Source: a virus
DNA: 64,000 nt
Virus record (IMG/VR): IMGVR_UViG_3300046517_002960
Span: 32,001-96,000 of that record
Strand: one strand, 5' to 3'
Shown here: positions 15,843 through 50,210 of the stretch, piece by piece
Numbering within the stretch: the first letter of the stretch is position 1
Layout of the letters: every line of letters begins with the position of its first letter
Notes under the pieces: model-generated
Told to the model about the DNA's origin: nothing
Seen by the model: only the letters and a program-made list of their open reading frames with translations
Database searches by the model: none
Translations under genes and position numbers: made by a program

Positions 15843-16264
15843 TCACCACGGCCTGCCTGCCCCGGCGTCCGGCTCCGGCCGGGGCGGGGCGGGCGCGCCC
15901 TTGTGCGCTTCGATCCACTCGCCGATGATCCGCCGGGCGCGGGCCACGCTGTACCCGCCACGGAGCTGGTTGCAGTACACCGGCCGGCCCGCGGCGGGCG
16001 TGCACACCGGGCAGGGGTTGAGACGCCGCCCGGCGCCGTGCGCGGGCCGGATGTTGCGCAGGTCCCAGGCCAGGTCCGGTCGGTCAGCCACCGACTCGAG
16101 ATGGTCCGCCTGAACAGCGCCCCCATGGCCGCAAATATGGCAGACCCCGCCATGGTGCGAGACCGCGTACTTCGCGAACCGGTCCCACCTAATCTGGTGC
16201 CCTTGGTCGGCGCCACGCCATCCGGCTCACGCCGCGGGCTGCGCGGCAGCGGAACGTCGGGCAA
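15843..16264 (-). CDS. HNH endonuclease (phage packaging type), frame-discontinuous at TTA 16190-16192; predicted join(16264..16193,16187..15843)
   Basis: SD GGAGGTG plus TTG start; downstream frame CHICGHGGAVQADH..DLAWDLRNIRPAH..CPVC..CNQLRG has no start of its own. Confidence 0.75.
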
Positions 16265-18087: not shown

Positions 18088-18599
18088 GGGGCATCACCCC
18101 GGCGGTGCTGCTGGAAGACCCGAAGTACCCGCATAACGTCGGGATCGCGTTCCGCGCCTGCGCGCTGCTCGGCGTGGCACAGCTGTGGTACACCGGCACC
18201 CGGGGCGAGAGCGCCTGGCGGGAGCTGCGGCGGCTGCCGCGCGAGGAGCGGATGCCCCGGTACACGGCCCGGACCGAGCTGATCGCCGCGCCGGGCCGGT
18301 GGACAGGCGAGTTCCCGCCGGGCACCGTGCCGGTCGCGGTGGAGGTCAGCCCCACGGCGGAGGACCTGACCTGGTTCGAGCACCCGCAGGACGCGGTGTA
18401 CGTGTTCGGGCCGGAGGACGGGTCGCTGTCCAAGGGCACCCGGTCGGCGTGCCACCGGTTCGTGACCCTGCCGAGCGACGGGCCGCTGAACCTGGCCGTC
18501 GCGGTCGGCGCGGTGCTGATGGACCGGCGCGTCAAGGCGATCGCGGCCGGGCGGGAGGAGTCCCGGGGCGCCTACAAGCGCGTCCGGTCCATCGTCTGA
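18084..18599 (+). CDS. SPOUT (SpoU/TrmH/TrmL-family) RNA 2'-O-methyltransferase
   Basis: LEDPKYPHNVGIAFRAC, VFGPEDGSL, LNLAVAVGAVL; single domain, 171 aa. Confidence 0.85.
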   Translation: MRGITPAVLLEDPKYPHNVGIAFRACALLGVAQLWYTGTRGESAWRELRRLPREERMPRYTARTELIAAPGRWTGEFPPGTVPVAVEVSPTAEDLTWFEHPQDAVYVFGPEDGSLSKGTRSACHRFVTLPSDGPLNLAVAVGAVLMDRRVKAIAAGREESRGAYKRVRSIV

Positions 18600-29680: not shown

Positions 29681-32600
29681 TCACGAGCTGTCCGGCCAGG
29701 CCTGGAACGGACCCTCGCCGGCCGCCTCGATCGGCACTCCGTAGATCTCGTAGAACCGCTGGCTGCGCATGCACGCGATCAGCGTGGCCAGCGCCTCCTC
29801 GGCCTCGGCTAGCGGCACGAACGCGAACACCTCGTCGTGGATGGGCAGCAGCGGGTAGTGCCCCCACCGGGTGTCCTTCCACCGCAGCACCCCGTCGACC
29901 AGCAGCTCGCGGGCGGTGCCCTGGATGCAGTTGTGCGACAGGAACCCGTCCGCGATCAAGGTCCGGGTGCTGGTCTGGATTGAGGCGAGCACCAGGTCCC
30001 CGGCAGGCTCTACCGCTTCCACCTGAACAGGTTCGGTCATCCCGGCGGTCACCGAGATGTCCTCCCACAGCGCCTCGTAACGCGGCTGGAAGCGCACCGG
30101 CTGGAGCGTGCCGAGAATCTGCATGATGTGCCGGACAGATGTAGTCCCGGCCCGGTGGCACCGGGACGTGTTACCCAGTGAATCCGGCCGGAGCGTGTGC
30201 ATCAGCCCCAGGTCAGTCATGCCCTTGCAGAACGCGTCCATCACCGGGCCTGGATTCTGGGCGAACTCCAGCTTGCGGGCGGCCCGGACCTGATTCGGCG
30301 TGCAGATCTGGAGGTTTGCCTCGCCGTCGTACAGCCCGGCCAGCCAGCCAGCCGTACGAGTGTCAGCTTCCCGCCAGGTCCCGATGGACAGCAGCTCGTC
30401 GCCAGGCTGAAGTACGTCAGCCTGCACCCAGGACAGGTACCGGCCGCGCTTGCCGTTGAGCTGCCTGCGCCGGACAAGCCACAGGTGGTCCGCGCTGCAC
30501 GTGACAGCCCGGCCGCCGGCCCGCACCAGGACAGACGGCTTGCGCACCATGCTGGCGGCTTCCACGACAGCCGTCCGCATCCGGCGATGCTGATTACCGG
30601 GCAGCCGGTTCTCATCGAAAGCCACGAGCCGGTCGCCCACCTGAATCTCCGCGGCTGGCACGTACCGCAGATCGCTTCTGAGCACGGGCGTGTCCGGGGC
30701 CAGGCAGTAGTTGCCGGCCGCGTGGTGACGGCCGCGGGGCAGCCAGATGGTCCGGCCGGAGTACGCGGTCCAGGCCCGGTTGCCGGATTGCGCGTAGGCC
30801 CGCATCTCCTGGTCCCAGGCGGCGTACCGGGGAGCGATCTGCTCGAACGCCCGGTGCACCGCCCGGCCGTGCGCCACTGGCAGCCCGACCTGCTTCGCCC
30901 CGGTGTCCGGGCCGCCGCCGAACATCTTACTGAACACGATGCGCTTGGAGTTGTAGCGGTCTTCCTTGCCGGCGTTCCCGCCGAAGGCCATCCGGGCGGC
31001 CATCCAGTGCAGCCCCTTCTGGTCCAGCCCGCAGGCCGGGTGACACGGGTCGTTCCCGCACGCCTGGCAGCGGGTGGACAGCTCGGCCTCCAGCAGCGCG
31101 AAGTCGCCGCTCAGCGCGGCGCCGACCCGGATCTCCACGCCGGAGAAGTCGGCGCTGATCCCGGCCATCGGCACCCCGTACGGGCTGGTCAGCTCGTCGT
31201 CGGCGATGACGCAGGCGCGGATCCCGCCCTGCCGTGAGAATTGTTGCCCGTTGGGTCTCACGCAACTACTGCGACCCGTGTCGGCGTTGATCGTGTAGAC
31301 CACCGGGCGCATCCGGCCGTCGCCGCGTTCGCACAGCGTGTTCAGCGGGTTGAGCAGCAGGCCGAGGGTAGTGACGTCATGCCGGTACTCCAGGATCTGC
31401 CGGCACAGCTCGGAATGCTCGTAGAAGTCCCGGCCGTCCTGGCCGTCCTGCTTGGCCAGCGGCTCGAGCACGTCCTTGGCCGCGGACGGGCCGCCGCTCC
31501 CGGTCCGGCCCAGCGGCACGCCCATCGCGGCCAGCGCGGCCGGGACTTCCTTGGACGAGCTCGGGTTGGCGATGTCCGGGCACAGCTCGGCCACCCGCCG
31601 CCGGGCTGCCTCGCGGGCCTGCTCGTACTCGGCGATCTTGGCCTGGATGTGGCGGTGGTCCAGCCGGAACCCGTCGTGCGCGACCCGGGCGCACATGGCC
31701 TGGAAGACCCGCTCGCGGGCCAGCACGTGCTCGTCCGGGCGGGGCAGCACGCGCAGCACCGCGGCCAGGTCCAGCACGTCGGACCCGGCGTACCGCTCGA
31801 ACGTCTCGCAGTCCTTGCGGACCATGGCCCAGCCGGATTTCTCCCGCGGGGTGCTGGCCTCCAGGTTGGTCAGCCACCGGCCGGACTTGAACAGCGCGCT
31901 GCGCGCCTCGTCGGCCGGCTTGGACGCCGAGTAGCCGCCCAGCAGGCCGAGGGCGAGCCGCTTCAGCTCGTTCTCGTCCGACCCGGCCAGCGACGGGTCG
32001 CCCAGCTTGGAGATCAGCACGGAGTCCTCCATCCGCGCCCACATGGAGTCGCGGTCGCCGAGCCCGTGCCAGGCCAGCGGGACCAGGTCGGCGCAGGCCG
32101 AATGCGCGTGCAGCTTGCCGGCCCGGGCCACCAGGTCCCGGATCGCCGCCGCCTGCGCATCGTCGGAGGGGTCGAAGACCGCGGCGATGTGCTCCCCGCC
32201 CAGCTGGACCAGCCGCAGCTCGTGGTCGGCATGGCTGACCGGGTAGCCGGAGTGCTCCACGTCCACCGACAGGTCCGCCAGGTACGGGGTGACCGCGGCG
32301 ACCGCCTCGGCGATCGTGCACGGCAGCACCATCGGCGGCGCGCCCGGGTCGGCCGGGTTCCGGGCGGTGAGCACCGGCAGCGGGTACACCGGGCCTTCCA
32401 GCGCCGGGTCCGGCCGCAGCGGCTTCGGCTTCGGGGCCTTCGGCTCCCGGGGCTTGCGTTCTGCTCGCTTCCGTTCGGCTGGCTTCCGCTCTGGCTTGTC
32501 CGCTACAGGCTGTGACGGAGCTGCCGGGTCCGCTGCCGGGGGTGCCGCTGCCGGGGATTCCTGAAGGGATTGAGGGTCTGAGGGGTTATTTCTATTTTCC

Positions 32601-39573: not shown

Positions 39574-42500
39574 TCAGTCCAGCCCCCCGAGCAGCATCCG
39601 GACATATCTGGGGTCCTTGTACAGCTGGCCCGCCTGGCCCGCCTTGTCTTTCAGCACCTCGCGACGGTACTGGTCGACCGTGTCCAGCGTGACGAAGTCC
39701 ACGATCTCCACGTGGTCCCACTTCTCGGCGCCGATCCGGTGCACCCGGTCCTCGGGCTGGATGGCCAGGTCCAGCTGGTAGGACCGCTGCAGCATGGCCG
39801 CGCTGTTGCTCGCGGTCAGGGTGATGCCGAGCCCGCCGGCGCCGAGCGTGCAGATGATAACGTCCAGCTTGCCCGCCTGGAAGTCCTCGACTGCGGCCTG
39901 CCGGGTCTTCTTGGTGACCCGCACGCCGGGCTCGCCGTACTCGCCGGAATTGCCCTCGCCGACGACGTAGCCGGTGCGCAGCCCGGCTTTGGCGCAGTAC
40001 TGCCCGGTGATCATGGCCAGCTGCCGGGACTCGGCGAACACCGCGGTGGGCTGGTCCGGCCGCTCGGCCAGCAGGTCCAGCAGCGCCTCGGCCTTCCAGC
40101 ACGGCGGCTTGAGGGTGACTGTGTAGTGCGGCTTGAGCAGCCCGGTGGCCTCGTCCAGCCGGTAGTCGACGGCGACGTCGGCGGCGCTCGACGCGAGCTG
40201 GGACAGCCGGGTCAGCTTCTCGATCGTGTACATGACCGGGAGCTCGCCGCCGTCCGGGAGCTCGGCCAGCATCTGATCGCGCATGGTGTCGTACGCGTGC
40301 CGCCAGGCCGGGGGCATCTCCGGGCGGCGCAGCGAGTAGATCTTGTCCGGCAGGAACGCCAGCACGTCGGCCTTGGCGACCCGGCGCAGCTGCCCGGCCA
40401 GCGCGGCGAAGAACTCGGCTTCCATCTCCGGGCGCAGGCCCAGGATCAGCTCGTCGTAGTCCCCGTTGCCGCGCCGGGTGGCCAGGTACCGCCGTTTCAG
40501 GTCTTCCTTGGACGGCCAGTCCAGCGGCGCCATGGTGAACAGCGGCTGGTAGATGTCGCCGAAGTCGTGGGTGACCAGCGTGCCCGACGCCCAGACCAGG
40601 GTCGCCGCGTAGTGCGCGACCCGCCACAGCGCTTTAGACTGCTTGGCCTTCGGGTTGCGGCCCAGGTGAGATTCGTCGGCGATGACGCAGGCGGCCCGGA
40701 TCTTCACCAGCAGGCCGCGCATGTCCGGGGCGTCCCGGCGCATCGTGGCGTAGGTGGTGATCAGGATGTACCGGCCGTGCTTCCAGCTGGCGATCCTGGC
40801 CCGCTTCGCCCCGCGGTGCAGGACCGGCTCCGGCCAGTGCGGCATCAGCTCGCGGATATGGTCCTGCCAGACGCGGGCTACCTCCCACGACGGCACGACG
40901 ATGACCATCGGGAAGACGTCGGTGCCGGCCAGGCGGCGGGCCTCGATGCCGAGCAGCGTCGACGCGGTGTTATGCGTCACCGCGAACCGGTCTGTAACGT
41001 ACAGGCGGGACGGGTGATCAATAGCGATGCACTGCATCGGCTTCCGGCCGGCGAACTCTGCTGAGACGAGTGACCGGGCCGGCTGGCGCGTGCTGTGCCT
41101 GTTTTTCCACAAGCAGGTCTTCCGGGACAGCCGGAACGGGGACAGCGGCTGTGGCAGGTTCACCGTGACCGTGTACCGCTCCCGGCCCAGCTGGAATCTT
41201 GCCGCCAGGTGCCCGGTGCCGCCCAGAGATTCGGCCAGCCACCGCACGTCCTCGGCCAGCTGCCGGCTGGATGAGCCGAACTGCGCGGTTCCGTCACGGC
41301 TCAGAACCCATCCATCGGTATCCATCAGTCCCTGCAGGACAGCAAGGCGGCAGCTGGCCGGGCTCATCTTGTAGGCGTCCGGGACGAACTTCGTCAGGCT
41401 TGAGCATCCACGCAGGCCCAGATCGGCCAGCGGGCCGGCAACCGGATGACACCTTTTTCCTGCTATCGGGAACCGGCTCCGGGTATCGTCCTTAACAGCT
41501 GCCTGGTAACAGCGCCCGCACAACCCTCGTGCGATGGCGATCCGCCCGCATGCGCAGATCCGGCCGTTCGCGGAACCGAGCGTGCTAACCAGCCGGTAGT
41601 CGTACTTTTTGCCCGGCTCTTTCTTCACGATGATACCGGGAGGAACTAGAGACTCGATGGACGCGACAATCTCGGCGTCAGCCGTTGACACCCGGGTTGA
41701 CCTGGTCGTGAACCCGCCGTCACCCAGCAGCAGGCCGAGCAGGTACGGGTCCAGCTCGCGTTTCGCGCCGCACTCAAGATCGGGGGCCGTGATCATCGGG
41801 ACGTACCACTTCGCACGGTCACTGTCACCGTTCGGAGCCCGGAGCCCGGCATCAATGAGATCCCGTAGCGTCCGGGTCTGCCAGTAATAGGGAAGCCGCT
41901 CACCGGTTGTCTTCGAGAGCATGCGGCGGTGCCTGCTTACCCGCCAGAGATGCTGGTCATTGCATTCAGCTGATGAGCCGTCGCTGAAGATGACTTCGTA
42001 GCAGTCTTGTTCTCCCTGCGGGAACACGCCGGTAACCCGGGATGGCGTGCCGTCTCCGGCGATCACCAGGTCGCCCGTGCGAATCTCGCCCATAGCCCGG
42101 AATCCGCTCGGGGTCAGCACTTGTGCGTCCAGTGGCTGTGCTTTCCCGGTGCCCGGCTCATCGCCCAGGAGGTACTTCCCGGCTGACGCGATCGCGGCGG
42201 CGCCGTCCAGCTGGTGCGGGTAGGGCGTGAACGACTCCGGCCAGCACCGCGGGATGGCGGGCGGTGGCGAGGTGCGGCGGATCGTCTCGGCGATGATCCA
42301 CTCGGTCAGCTTCGGCCAGGGCTTCCAGACCGTATGGCCGTCGTGGTTGTAGATGAACCCGAGCTGGACGATGGTGGCCCAGCTCAGCGGGTAGTACCGG
42401 GCGCCGGTCGGCTGGCCGTTCTCGTCCAGTGCCGATTCCCCGGCCGCCGTCAGCAGGTGCAGCCGCTCGGCGATGTTCTTCTTGTCATGCGCGGAGCCGG

Positions 42501-42675
42501 TGGCCCACAGCACCATGTGCCGGCCGTCCGCCGTCATCTCGCCGCGCAGGGCGCCATCGCCATAATAACCGTTCCGCGGCGGCTCGCGGTACGCCGGGAG
42601 CCGGTACGGGCCGGGCTGCTCCGGCGCCAGGAACATGGCCACGGCGTCGTGTGCCGCTGCTTCGGCGAGATTCAT
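39574..42675 (-). CDS. SNF2/DEAD-like SF2 helicase, intein-containing
   Basis: PYPHQ, DEPGTGK|T, DESH, ASGT, QPEDRVHRIG. Confidence 0.9.
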   Translation of the reverse strand: MNLAEAAAHDAVAMFLAPEQPGPYRLPAYREPPRNGYYGDGALRGEMTADGRHMVLWATGSAHDKKNIAERLHLLTAAGESALDENGQPTGARYYPLSWATIVQLGFIYNHDGHTVWKPWPKLTEWIIAETIRRTSPPPAIPRCWPESFTPYPHQLDGAAAIASAGKYLLGDEPGTGKAQPLDAQVLTPSGFRAMGEIRTGDLVIAGDGTPSRVTGVFPQGEQDCYEVIFSDGSSAECNDQHLWRVSRHRRMLSKTTGERLPYYWQTRTLRDLIDAGLRAPNGDSDRAKWYVPMITAPDLECGAKRELDPYLLGLLLGDGGFTTRSTRVSTADAEIVASIESLVPPGIIVKKEPGKKYDYRLVSTLGSANGRICACGRIAIARGLCGRCYQAAVKDDTRSRFPIAGKRCHPVAGPLADLGLRGCSSLTKFVPDAYKMSPASCRLAVLQGLMDTDGWVLSRDGTAQFGSSSRQLAEDVRWLAESLGGTGHLAARFQLGRERYTVTVNLPQPLSPFRLSRKTCLWKNRHSTRQPARSLVSAEFAGRKPMQCIAIDHPSRLYVTDRFAVTHNTASTLLGIEARRLAGTDVFPMVIVVPSWEVARVWQDHIRELMPHWPEPVLHRGAKRARIASWKHGRYILITTYATMRRDAPDMRGLLVKIRAACVIADESHLGRNPKAKQSKALWRVAHYAATLVWASGTLVTHDFGDIYQPLFTMAPLDWPSKEDLKRRYLATRRGNGDYDELILGLRPEMEAEFFAALAGQLRRVAKADVLAFLPDKIYSLRRPEMPPAWRHAYDTMRDQMLAELPDGGELPVMYTIEKLTRLSQLASSAADVAVDYRLDEATGLLKPHYTVTLKPPCWKAEALLDLLAERPDQPTAVFAESRQLAMITGQYCAKAGLRTGYVVGEGNSGEYGEPGVRVTKKTRQAAVEDFQAGKLDVIICTLGAGGLGITLTASNSAAMLQRSYQLDLAIQPEDRVHRIGAEKWDHVEIVDFVTLDTVDQYRREVLKDKAGQAGQLYKDPRYVRMLLGGLD
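40969..42141 (-). mobile_element. Ala1 (class 3) intein with LAGLIDADG endonuclease (391 aa)
   Basis: GK|AQPLD ... HLW ... LLLGDGG ... GLMDTDG ... MQCI ... THN|T. Confidence 0.9.
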
Positions 42676-42695
42676 GCCGGGGTACCTTCTGCCGT

Positions 42696-42968
42696 CTACT
42701 GCGCCTGGGGGTCCGTGCCGGGCGCGAACGCGGTGCCGCGCAGGTGCCAGCGCTCGCACATCGGGGTGCCGGTCAGCGGCTTGCCGTCCAGCCCGGACGG
42801 GGCCGTGGCGGCAGTTGCCCGGCCGGCCTGCCGGATCACGCCTCCGCGGGGGACCGCGCCGTCCGCGTGGCAGGGGCGGGCGCAGCCGCAGTGGCCCTCG
42901 CGGGCCAGGGTGTCCTCGGCGTTGGCGCGGATCCCGCAGTGAGCACCACATTCGAGGGTCAGGGCCAC
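42696..42968 (-). CDS. small Cys-rich protein
   Basis: SD gggaggga; Cys clusters. Confidence 0.5.
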   Translation of the reverse strand: MALTLECGAHCGIRANAEDTLAREGHCGCARPCHADGAVPRGGVIRQAGRATAATAPSGLDGKPLTGTPMCERWHLRGTAFAPGTDPQAQ

Positions 42969-43075: not shown

Positions 43076-44476
43076 TTACTGCGGCTGGGGCTGCATGTTC
43101 ACCTGCTGCGCCGCCAGCTTGCTGATCAGCGCCAGCTGCTCGGGGTTCATGCCGGCCACGTCCTCGGCGCTGACGCCGGGGGGAAGCGGGGCGGCCTGAG
43201 CCTGCGGTGCTGGCGGACCTGGCTGGTACGGCGGACCCGCGGGCGCGGGCTGGGCGTGCTGGGGCTGCTGGTACTGTCCGGCGGTGGCCATGGCGGCCTG
43301 GGTCGCGTTCTGGACAGCCTGCCCGGCCGCGGACTGCGGGGTGCCCTGGGGTGGACCCTGCTGCTGCGGTGCGGGCGGCTGGCCGGGCAGCTGCTGCGCC
43401 GGCTGGGGGTAGCCCTGCGGGACGCCCGGAGGCGGACCCTGCTGGTAGCCTCCTGGCGGGCCTACAGGGTAGGTCCCGTACTGCGCCGCGTTCTGCACGT
43501 CCTGCCGGAACTGGTACTGCGGTTCCTGCTGCTGGTACTGCGGCTGAGGCTGCTGCGGTGCCGCCGGGGCAGGCTGGGCCGGGGGGGCCTGGGCCTGCTG
43601 TCCGTCCGGCGCGGGGGGTACCCCGGAGCCGTCCGGCCGGCGGTAGACGATGTTGTGCAGCTTCTTGGCGTTGAGGTTGGGGATGTTCCGGTCGCCGACG
43701 TAGGTGATCGTGATGATCGCGCCCATCTCCGGCGGCCCGGCGGGCGCTCCGGCCCGGCCCATCGCGGCGGCGAGCTCGTCACGCTCGCTGCCGCGGACGT
43801 ACCAGGTCGCGCGCCCGTCCGGGAACTCGATCGACTCCTGGACGGCCAGCGGGACGGTCATCTGCCACTTCGGCCGCCCGTCACGGAACTCCAGCCCGCG
43901 GCCGGTGGTGAAGTCGGTCTGCTGGGTGACGTCAGCGTGGGTGACCGGCCGCGCGACCACCCCCGTGATCGACTGGCCGACCTGCTTGTGCAGGAACGAG
44001 GCGATCGACCGGCCGCCGCCGGAGGGCTGGTTGAAGAACAAGTCCAGGTCGCCCTGGGTCGCGGGCGGGCGCTGCTGCTGGGCCTGGCCGGCGAACCCGC
44101 CGGGGCCGGGCTGCTGCCACTGCTGGCCAGCCGGCGGACCCTGGTAGCCCTGCTGGGGGATGCCCTGGTAGCCCTGCTGGGGGATGCCCTGGTAGCCGGG
44201 CTGCGGGGCGCTGGGAGGCGGACCCTGGTAGTAGCCCTGGACGGGCATCCCCGTGTAGCCGGGCTGGGCGGCCGGGGCGGGGGGCGGGGGCTGCTGCGCG
44301 TAACCCGGGTCGGGCGGCGCGGGCGCGTACCCTGGCTGGGCCTGGGTGTAGCGCGGGTCGTAGCCGGGCTGGGGCGCCGGGGCGGGTCCGGGGGGCGGGG
44401 GCTGCTGCGCGTAGCGCGGGTCGTACTGCGGGTCCTGCGGTGGCTGGGCGTACCGCGGGTCGTAGAGCTGGGACAC
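43076..44476 (-). CDS. putative ssDNA-binding protein with Pro/Gln-rich arms
   Basis: Central ITGVV..QQTDF..DGRPKWQ..WYVRG..ITITYVG; lies between helicase and exonuclease genes. Confidence 0.6.
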   Translation of the reverse strand: MSQLYDPRYAQPPQDPQYDPRYAQQPPPPGPAPAPQPGYDPRYTQAQPGYAPAPPDPGYAQQPPPPAPAAQPGYTGMPVQGYYQGPPPSAPQPGYQGIPQQGYQGIPQQGYQGPPAGQQWQQPGPGGFAGQAQQQRPPATQGDLDLFFNQPSGGGRSIASFLHKQVGQSITGVVARPVTHADVTQQTDFTTGRGLEFRDGRPKWQMTVPLAVQESIEFPDGRATWYVRGSERDELAAAMGRAGAPAGPPEMGAIITITYVGDRNIPNLNAKKLHNIVYRRPDGSGVPPAPDGQQAQAPPAQPAPAAPQQPQPQYQQQEPQYQFRQDVQNAAQYGTYPVGPPGGYQQGPPPGVPQGYPQPAQQLPGQPPAPQQQGPPQGTPQSAAGQAVQNATQAAMATAGQYQQPQHAQPAPAGPPYQPGPPAPQAQAAPLPPGVSAEDVAGMNPEQLALISKLAAQQVNMQPQPQ

Positions 44477-44605
44477 TGTGTCCTCCAGTGCTGTGCGGTG
44501 GATTCCCGGTGGGGCTTGCGACTGTGCTGTTAACTGTGAAGTGTGTACTGCGGTGGTACAGCCGTGTTACGGCTAGATACTGCGTAGGACTGACTATAGC
44601 GCATT

Positions 44606-45479
44606 TCAGCGGCGGACGCTCGGCACCGAGGGATCGGAGTGCCCGGGGCAGCCCGGACCCCCGTCCCGCGCGCTCTGCGGCCTGTAGAAGGGGCACCAGA
44701 ACAGCTAAGAAACATCCGTCGTCAGTCGGGGTGCGCGGCACCGCCGAGATCGGGATGTTTCTTGCCATCACCTCCCCCGCGATCTGGCGGCGGATGGCCG
44801 TCTTGCCCAGCACGGCCTCGATGACCACGTCGTCCAGCGCGCTGTACTGGTGCTCCCAGACGTACATGGAGTCCAGGGTCGGCTCGGTCCGCGGCAGCGC
44901 GGCCAGCACGATCCGGTCGACCGGCAGGCCCAGGTTGCGGTAGCCGAGCGCGTACAGCAGGAGCTGGATCTGGTACCGCTGCGGCGGGCCTTCCGGGCGG
45001 CGGATCTTGGCCAGCGATGTCGGGCCGAGGACCTTCCAGTCCACGACCGCGTGATAGGCGGTGTCGTAGAGGTCCGCCGTGCCGGGGTAGGACGGGTGCG
45101 GGGATACCCGCTGCTCGGTCAGCCAGCGCGGCACGGGCAGCCCGTTCAGCTGGTTCTCGAGCTGGAATTTCTCGGCCAGCCAGGCGTGCACCGCGGTGCC
45201 GACGATGGACGGCCACGGATCCGGCACGTGGTTGGTCACCGGCTCCCCGGCCAGCTTGCCGACTACCGCCCGGTCGCAGACGTCGCCGATCTCGGAGGGG
45301 CCGAGGTGGGCCTGCATGTTCCGGGGCTGGCGGTGCGCCTGGCGGTTGATGATCTCCAGCAGCTCGTGCGCGTACAGCGACGCCCAGGCGGAGTTGCCGT
45401 TCGGGAGCGTCGGCGCGGTGCCCATGAACGAGGCCGGGTCCATGAACTCGGCCGGGCTGATGCGCGGGCGGTCAGCCAC
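44606..45479 (-). CDS. Cas4-like PD-(D/E)XK exonuclease, frame-discontinuous at TTA 44706-44708; predicted join(45479..44709,44698..44606)
   Basis: GPSEIGDVCDR, GTAVH, TEQRV, GTADLYD, DWK, YQIQLLLY; C-terminal CF|WCPFY..GCPG split over two frames. Confidence 0.85.
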
Positions 45480-49676: not shown

Positions 49677-50210
49677 ATGACGACCAGGATGCAGTTCATC
49701 ACGACGGATGACCTGGACGAGTTCGACAGCGGCGGCAAGGTGCTCAACGACATCGGCGACGACGGCGAGACGGTCGTCTTCTCGGTCGGCGGGCACGTCC
49801 GCGAGCTGCACCTGACGGCGGTCCACGCGAAAGAATTCCGCGCCGTGATGGCGCGGTACGTGGCCGCCGGGCACGAGCCGGGGCAGCAGCCGCTGCCGCC
49901 CGCGGGCGACCGCCCGCCGCCGCGCAAGGGCCAGGGCCGCCGCCGGGAGATCCCCGGCACCCGGGACTTCTACCGGGCCATGCGCGACTTCGCCGCGGAG
50001 CACGGGATCGAGGTGCCCCTGGCGGGCCGGGATGACGACAAGAAGAACTACGTCTACACCGACGAGCTGAAGCGCAGGTACCTGAGCGACCTGCAGCGGC
50101 TGGCCGGCGACCGCAGGGACGGCGGCGGCGCAGCCGCGCAGCTGGCCATGGCGGGACAGCTCGGCCTGATCACGGGCGTACCATCAGGAACACAGCGCGC
50201 TCCGGGGTAG
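49677..50210 (+). CDS. lsr2: Lsr2-like nucleoid-associated protein
   Basis: TDDLD..ETVVFSVGG..ELHL..AKEFR..YVAAG; C-terminal MRDFAAEHGIEV. Confidence 0.7.
   Translation: MTTRMQFITTDDLDEFDSGGKVLNDIGDDGETVVFSVGGHVRELHLTAVHAKEFRAVMARYVAAGHEPGQQPLPPAGDRPPPRKGQGRRREIPGTRDFYRAMRDFAAEHGIEVPLAGRDDDKKNYVYTDELKRRYLSDLQRLAGDRRDGGGAAAQLAMAGQLGLITGVPSGTQRAPG

Follow-up and report, generated by a model that had tools for sequence, protein, structure and literature searches.

The window analysed here is a stretch of 64,000 nucleotides (positions 32,001 to 96,000) of the virus record IMGVR_UViG_3300046517_002960, an actinophage-like soil phage record of the provirus class, 190 kb long and with 71% GC. Its minus strand carries an exonuclease gene that is split by a short coding gap. 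The features at this locus are as follows.

44709-45479, minus strand: upstream exonuclease segment, 257 codons, GTG start at 45479, ends on the take-off codon TTC
44771-44775, minus strand: internal Shine-Dalgarno (SD) sequence GGAGG (in GGAGGTG), 59 nt before the take-off codon
44704-44765, minus strand: predicted take-off stem-loop, core 11-bp helix with 44763-44753 paired with 44707-44717
44709-44711, minus strand: take-off codon TTC (Phe)
44699-44708, minus strand: 10-nt coding gap, with TTA at 44708-44706, a TAG of the landing frame at 44707-44705 and the landing codon TTC at 44701-44699
44606-44698, minus strand: downstream exonuclease segment, 30 codons plus stop, with two of the four invariant cysteines
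44695-44696, minus strand: equivalent of a LAGLIDADG intein insertion site (Cxx/CPFYR), between TGG and TGC
43932-44708, minus strand: non-conserved read-through tail with TTA read as Leu, 258 codons, overlapping the next gene
43076-44476, minus strand: next gene, Pro/Gln-rich, PHROG 1911 (function unknown), a conserved neighbour

The upstream segment matches the exonucleases of PHROG 1674 (E=1e-56), with phage Cas4/RecB exonucleases as further matches; the GTG start was assigned on the basis of homologous proteins, which begin with MADRP. RecB-like nuclease motifs (E116, D130, K143, Q166, Y170) are invariant in the homologues, as are four cysteines in a 1+3 pattern (C62, C250, C253, C268), two of which sit past the gap. 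The structure model of an intact homologue was closest to Cas4 SSO0001 (E=4e-4, weak TM), and a PDDEXK_1 match lay just below the cut-off; searches of the protein against Pfam, NCBIfam and PDB sequences gave no match. Judged by its nuclease fold and motifs, the gene is classified as a Cas4/RecB-like exonuclease, in which the four cysteines would bind Fe-S as a probable staple. The spacing of the last cysteine exceeds that of CRISPR Cas4. A CRISPR-associated Cas4 was ruled out, since the neighbours (a RecE-like fragment, the PHROG 1911 gene and an SNF2 helicase) show no cas1/cas2 or array linkage. Named genomes that carry relatives of the exonuclease belong mostly to Micromonospora, Nocardioides, Kribbella and similar genera, none to Streptomyces; a WhiB search for a host hint gave no match.

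On the minus strand TGT TTC is followed by a 10-nt block (TTA...TTC) and then by TGG TGC CCC. The first-pass annotation had proposed that decoding hops from the first TTC to the identical second one, and its coordinates hold. Resuming at TGG (44698), the hop would yield a product of 287 aa from the GTG at 45479 to the stop ending at 44606, with the junction GCF/WCPFYRP and the C-terminal cysteines restored; the landing frame does contain a TAG within the gap, as had been noted. The description of the read-through product stood in part: reading TTA as Leu adds 258 non-conserved codons, which run into the next gene out of frame with it, but the designation of that gene as SSB-like was not confirmed. 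Homologues had been expected to pass through C-x-x-C-P-F-Y-R without a gap, and they do. Strict CxxC was found at the gap position in 117 of 120 homologues and CxxC without extra residues in 62 of the 66 homologues of a later search; in the window only the 10-nt hop restores it.

Absence of the 10 nt from the reads had been named as grounds for dismissing the gap. Logan contigs from runs X1 (2065 nt) and X5 (556 nt) span it with no differences and no gaps; X5 comes from another study and year than X1, which may be the source sample. Because contigs of two sequencing studies carry the 10 nt unchanged, the insert is confirmed as a real feature. The bare pattern of a codon, TTA, four nucleotides and the same codon occurs 15 times in the 190-kb genome, five of them in the window. 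What goes beyond chance is where the gap lies, precisely on the frame break within an invariant CxxC, and that it recurs in homologues; its meaning does not come from the rarity of the pattern.

All three of the 120 homologues without strict CxxC have Leu directly following C-F-F/W, and two more proteins in the later search, one of them L158, have Leu right behind CFF. Two homologues show the gap pattern at the protein level only. DNA was available for five other gapped genes, whose gaps lie one codon downstream of that in the window:

L001: 10 nt, TTA-led, take-off/landing TTC/TCC
L007: 8 nt, TTA-led, TGG/AGG
L133: 9 nt and in frame, TTA-led, TTC/TTC; protein about 88% identical to that of the window
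L134: 8 nt, AAA-led, TTT/TTC
L158: 13 nt, TTA-led, TTC/TTC; held-out gene

That TTA-led inserts recur, with landing codons that match fully or nearly so, supports the hop reading of the first-pass annotation, in which the 5' stem-loop, the internal SD and the intein homing site had been overlooked. Landing codons are exact or wobble matches in three of the five relatives and match at two of three bases in the other two; going by these alleles, an exact match is not required in the exonuclease family (TTC/TCC and TGG/AGG exist). In intact homologues, TTA accounts for 7 of 21,000 in-frame codons. For L158, the TTA, the stem and the SD were predicted before the DNA was fetched; the TTA was present, with a 10-bp stem (pairing probability 0.998) and a weaker SD (GGGAG). 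Comparisons between gapped genes show that the reading frame past the gap is conserved, with pN/pS of 0.05/0.44 (window against L133) and 0.15/0.64, part of which a recent insertion could explain.

Further gapped alleles were sought in several ways. DNA pattern scans of viral and metagenome contigs gave only chance matches, and a related-locus search with a single exonuclease protein as query found nothing. With alignment A1 as query, 80 viral and 23 genome loci were obtained, none of them seen to be gapped, with two covering the site incompletely and a ranking that favours intact genes. P0134/L135 was discounted as a gapped allele, being a degenerate fusion. At the protein level, P0376 has a frameshift at the CxxC site that begins with Arg, P0183 has one at the DWK intein site that begins with Gly, and P0330 is odd at the CxxC site; the first two may be errors, or gaps led by a different hungry codon. 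The L133 insert (L133:11771-11790), whose 9-nt TTA gap keeps the frame and comes with all of the signals, is a candidate natural in-frame hop. At L134:2269-2290 the leading AAA is also a rare codon, and the identical protein is found on four contigs; a 2-nt deletion in a TTA-led insert of 10 nt may have given rise to this gap.

The region before the gap differs between gapped and ungapped alleles. For each of the six gapped genes with available DNA, an uninterrupted helix of 9-13 bp is predicted over the cysteine codon and the next codon, with a pairing probability of 0.99 or more; the 92 alleles that are ungapped or hold an intein reach at most 8 bp (mean 5.4) and a pairing probability of at most 0.94 (mean 0.44). 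The core helix of the window takes in the codons for Gly, Cys and Phe along with the TT of the TTA codon, and only 3 of 3000 synonymous shuffles reached 11 bp. It is spelled with rare codons (AGA, GGA and TGT, at 1.4%, 5% and 5% of their amino acids), and an Arg-to-Asn change that builds its 5' arm is common to the window and L133 and absent from the nearest ungapped relatives. L001, L134, L007 and L158 have a shorter stem in a register unlike that of the window and L133, and a comparison of L001 with L134 reveals compensatory changes. Once the stem has formed, 1-7 nt separate it from the landing codon downstream. L158 aside, each of the 5 gapped genes has GGAGG upstream, at a distance of 4-10 nt from the stem, versus 1 of 93 ungapped ones; the closest ungapped relatives have no SD and a helix of only 6-8 bp. 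Helix length and pairing probability separated gapped from ungapped alleles, whereas MFE z-scores against synonymous shuffles did not (p=0.05). A search of the gap region against Rfam gave no match.

Gapped alleles do not count as independent cases, so nominal p-values overstate the evidence. They are related, with at least two independent origins, perhaps only two, not six. The SD and stem together spell the peptide signature EGR-x-x-L-x-EV, which is shared by the six gapped alleles and by no other protein in the collected set, yet the gene bodies of these six were rejected as a single clade (AU p=7e-6). A shared cassette on gene bodies that do not group together points to lateral spread; convergence or repeated loss is possible. 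A sister relationship of L001 and L134 became weaker once the cassette region was excluded.

Taken together, these features suggest that the exonuclease is very probably made by programmed, short-distance bypassing triggered by UUA, of the type proposed for phage phiHau3. The ribosome arrives at UUC with the very rare UUA in its A site, where it would stall, and the peptidyl-tRNA-Phe would detach. The mRNA behind the ribosome could then zip into the stem, swallowing the take-off codon and pulling the message back, while the internal SD just 5' of the stem would anchor the small subunit. The ribosome would thereby advance by about 10 nt with re-pairing at the take-off codon blocked, and after the tRNA has re-paired on the second UUC, decoding would restart at UGG, so that CxxC and the last cysteine are regained. 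Landing would be set by geometry and not by codon identity alone, which would explain the imperfect landing matches in relatives. Ribosomes that decode UUA as Leu would make a product without two of the four cysteines, and sensitivity to the UUA-reading tRNA would come along with the insert, with a possible regulatory use. Against this model stand the AAA-led gap of L134, the two landings that match at two of three bases, and the GGGAG of L158.

UUA-led coding gaps of a Streptomyces phage terminase were reportedly noted by Smith in 2013. In large terminases they have been described for phiHau3 (two, of 10 nt) and for the StrepC.1 and S. catenulae prophages (Antonov 2023, PMC10732093), and the phiHau3 junction peptide was detected by MS in E. 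coli with UAA replacing UUA (PMC10732093). The exonuclease gap shares with these a short UUA-led gap in an invariant motif and a matched or wobble-matched landing codon (in phiHau3, GGC/GGT and TCT/TCC), and the 5' stem-loop and internal SD proposed there as signals are present in the exonuclease gene; in sequence it appears to have every feature of the phiHau3 type that was tested. In contrast to phiHau3, however, the gap lies in a gene of DNA metabolism rather than packaging, the family's gaps range from 8 to 13 nt and include in-frame and AAA-led forms, they overlap an intein site exactly, about 90 ungapped alleles can be compared, and the hosts found are not Streptomyces. Of the two phiHau3 gaps, one lies in Walker A and the other six codons before the Gaia intein site, which as a link to homing is suggestive only. 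Both terminase gaps of the phiHau3 type are also present in phage GreenWeasel (L145), where the annotation splits the terminase into three genes. In T4 gene 60, 50 nt are bypassed, the take-off codon joins a stem and mRNA refolding has been proposed as the motor (PMC5009743; bioRxiv 10.1101/2024.12.09.627546), and the insert protects against the HNH homing endonuclease MobA (bioRxiv 10.1101/2022.08.31.505936). The exonuclease resembles it in that the take-off codon becomes part of a stem and in the proposed refolding motor and homing protection, but its gap is five times shorter and led by a hungry sense codon instead of UAG, its SD lies 5' of the stem rather than near the landing site, and the would-be enemy is a LAGLIDADG intein at the same site rather than a linked free-standing endonuclease. 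A cassette of the gene 60/MobA kind was therefore rejected (10 nt, TTA, no adjacent endonuclease). The byps of Magnusiomyces capitatus mitochondria, reported to be context-independent and to rely on relaxed ribosomes (PMC5009743), are similar in their many short inserts per genome, an unused codon in the A site and tolerance of imperfect landing; they differ in that the exonuclease gene has dedicated 5' signals and is read by bacterial ribosomes. In the literature searched, no bypass was described for any exonuclease or any intein site, and UUA-led gaps were found in three terminases only.

The same genome holds further TTA-led gaps:

G000:C1:182853, minus strand: terL (L147), outside the window, 8 nt, GAA/GAG
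G000:C1:179341, minus strand: portal, 8 nt, TGG/CGG
G000:C1:165348, minus strand: glycosyltransferase, 7 nt, GCT/GCT
G000:C1:128815, minus strand: second glycosyltransferase, 6 nt, in frame
G000:C1:123581, minus strand: tape measure, 10 nt, ATT/GTC

The terL junction HTAHE/FK agrees with homologues only after the hop; the gap lies 6 nt (two codons) before the intein site of the LittleE terminase and has GGAGG 67 nt upstream. The junction of the first glycosyltransferase likewise agrees with homologues only after the hop and matches phage KimJongPhill; the phage matches of this gene are Streptomyces phages only (32-35%). Near the start of an HNH-like gene (window 16188-16195, minus strand) there is a candidate 5-nt TTA-led gap (AGA/AGG) with a weak stem, and a possible gap at window 58347 was rejected as a gene boundary. 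The record has 39 tRNA calls, of which 38 form one array at G000:C1:149960-157547; tRNA-Leu(UAA) is absent among the 39. NCBIfam gives no TrmL assignment to a SpoU-family methyltransferase at window 18105-18518 (plus strand), whose PF00588 match is above the cut-off.

An intein with a LAGLIDADG domain (319-351 aa) occupies Cxx/CPFYR in 22 homologous proteins and at four loci; the carriers include P0121, which is 85% identical to the window's exonuclease. The relatives' gaps lie exactly on this site and that of the window 3 nt upstream. In actinophage Cas4/RecB exonucleases the published intein site is nuclease motif III (PMC5050341; bioRxiv 10.1101/2025.01.02.630785). The present family resembles these proteins (PHROG 1674) in its PD-(D/E)XK-type motifs, its 1+3 cysteines and its frequent inteins, but it has three intein sites (before Cys62, at DWK and in CxxC), and the CxxC site can hold a bypass gap instead. 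No TTA gaps were found at the other two sites in searches that were ill-suited to truncations. An intein or group I/II intron at the gap itself was ruled out (the insert is only 10 nt, with no Rfam match), and an origin as a relic of an intein 5' end, considered for its L-Q-G and L-A-G likeness, was rejected, as the insert lacks the Cys codon with which the intein begins. No free-standing endonuclease was found beside the gene and none in the genome that resembles the intein of the site; an HNH gene 1.6 kb downstream of the exonuclease occurs in L133 only. Elsewhere, the SNF2 helicase at window 39574-42951 (minus strand) carries a LAGLIDADG intein, and a second LAGLIDADG domain lies at G000 117659-117859 within the tape measure frame.

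We give about even chances to the idea that the insert and its recoded flanks shield the gene from homing of the LAGLIDADG intein without carrying an intein. Against such a role, a shared preference for conserved motifs might be all that links inteins and gaps, there is no endonuclease beside the gene, and the phiHau3 gaps are not exactly on an intein site. Somewhat more doubtful is a wider version, in which a mobile recoding cassette of about 70 nt (SD, stem, UUA gap) would be a third allele beside 'empty' and 'intein', immune to the endonuclease of the latter, removed by hopping instead of splicing and spread by recombination, with at least two origins at the exonuclease site and occurrence also at the terminase intein site of the same genome.

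Bypassing is compatible with a mainly regulatory use, in which a bldA-like sensor would permit exonuclease, terminase, portal and tape measure only when the UUA-reading tRNA is scarce and thus tie the lytic cycle to the growth phase of the host. That this is the main reason why the gap is kept seems possible but rather unlikely. It would account for TTA-led gaps in several essential genes of the genome and for a tRNA array with Leu CAG, GAG and CAA without UAA, and it has already been proposed for phiHau3 (PMC10732093); however, bldA control may not reach beyond Streptomycineae (PMC4255298), the cultured or binned hosts found for the exonuclease family are all non-Streptomyces, in-frame 9-nt and AAA-led variants occur, and most close relatives have no gap. 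The alternative that the gene is dead, a pseudogene left by repair of a cut made by the intein endonuclease, draws on the position of every gap at the predicted cut site and on the differing insert sequences, and actinobacteria possess end-joining repair. Yet scars would not be TTA-led in five of six cases or end in a matching codon, nor would they bring a stem and an SD for which rare codons and an amino-acid substitution are used, and the downstream frame and catalytic motifs are intact; we regard this as very improbable.

No more credible is a +1 frameshift within the gap, which would insert about three residues (Cx5C), or a read-through product that is itself functional. The in-frame 9-nt insert of L133, which reads CFFLLFC, is in its favour, but the landing-frame TAG blocks a shift at UUA, gaps of 8, 9, 10 and 13 nt need different shifts where a single hop rule fits all, CxxC spacing is otherwise invariant, and the read-through tails are unrelated or merely off-frame of the conserved tail. 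The direct TTC repeat that flanks the gap would also suit removal of the 10 nt at the RNA level, whether the polymerase jumped from one TTC to the other or a micro-intron was spliced out. We give this little credence: the relatives' matches are at the codon level (TTT/TTC, GAA/GAG) or imperfect, an SD and a hungry codon are signals for ribosomes, Rfam gave no match, and splicing of 8-13 nt is not known in bacteria. As the record is uncultured and metagenome-derived, an assembly or sequencing error was considered too, but with identical contigs from two studies and similar gaps in unrelated samples its chance is close to nil.

Natural bypassing is documented for T4 gene 60, for yeast mitochondrial byps and, with limited support, for three Streptomyces terminases. 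The exonuclease family adds a case in which natural alleles are gapped, empty or filled by an intein at a single codon. Comparing these alleles makes it possible to read the signals proposed for phiHau3 (stem and internal SD), for which mutational work in Streptomyces was described as impractical, and the signals can also be tested on cassettes of 100 nt. It becomes possible to test, too, if refolding of the mRNA powers hops of a fixed length and if the gaps serve UUA sensing or protection from homing endonucleases. Gapped exonuclease genes get mis-annotated by gene callers. As a separate observation, a probable Lsr2-like gene lies at window 49677-50210 (plus strand), and PF11774 occurs nearby in the relatives L004 and L133.
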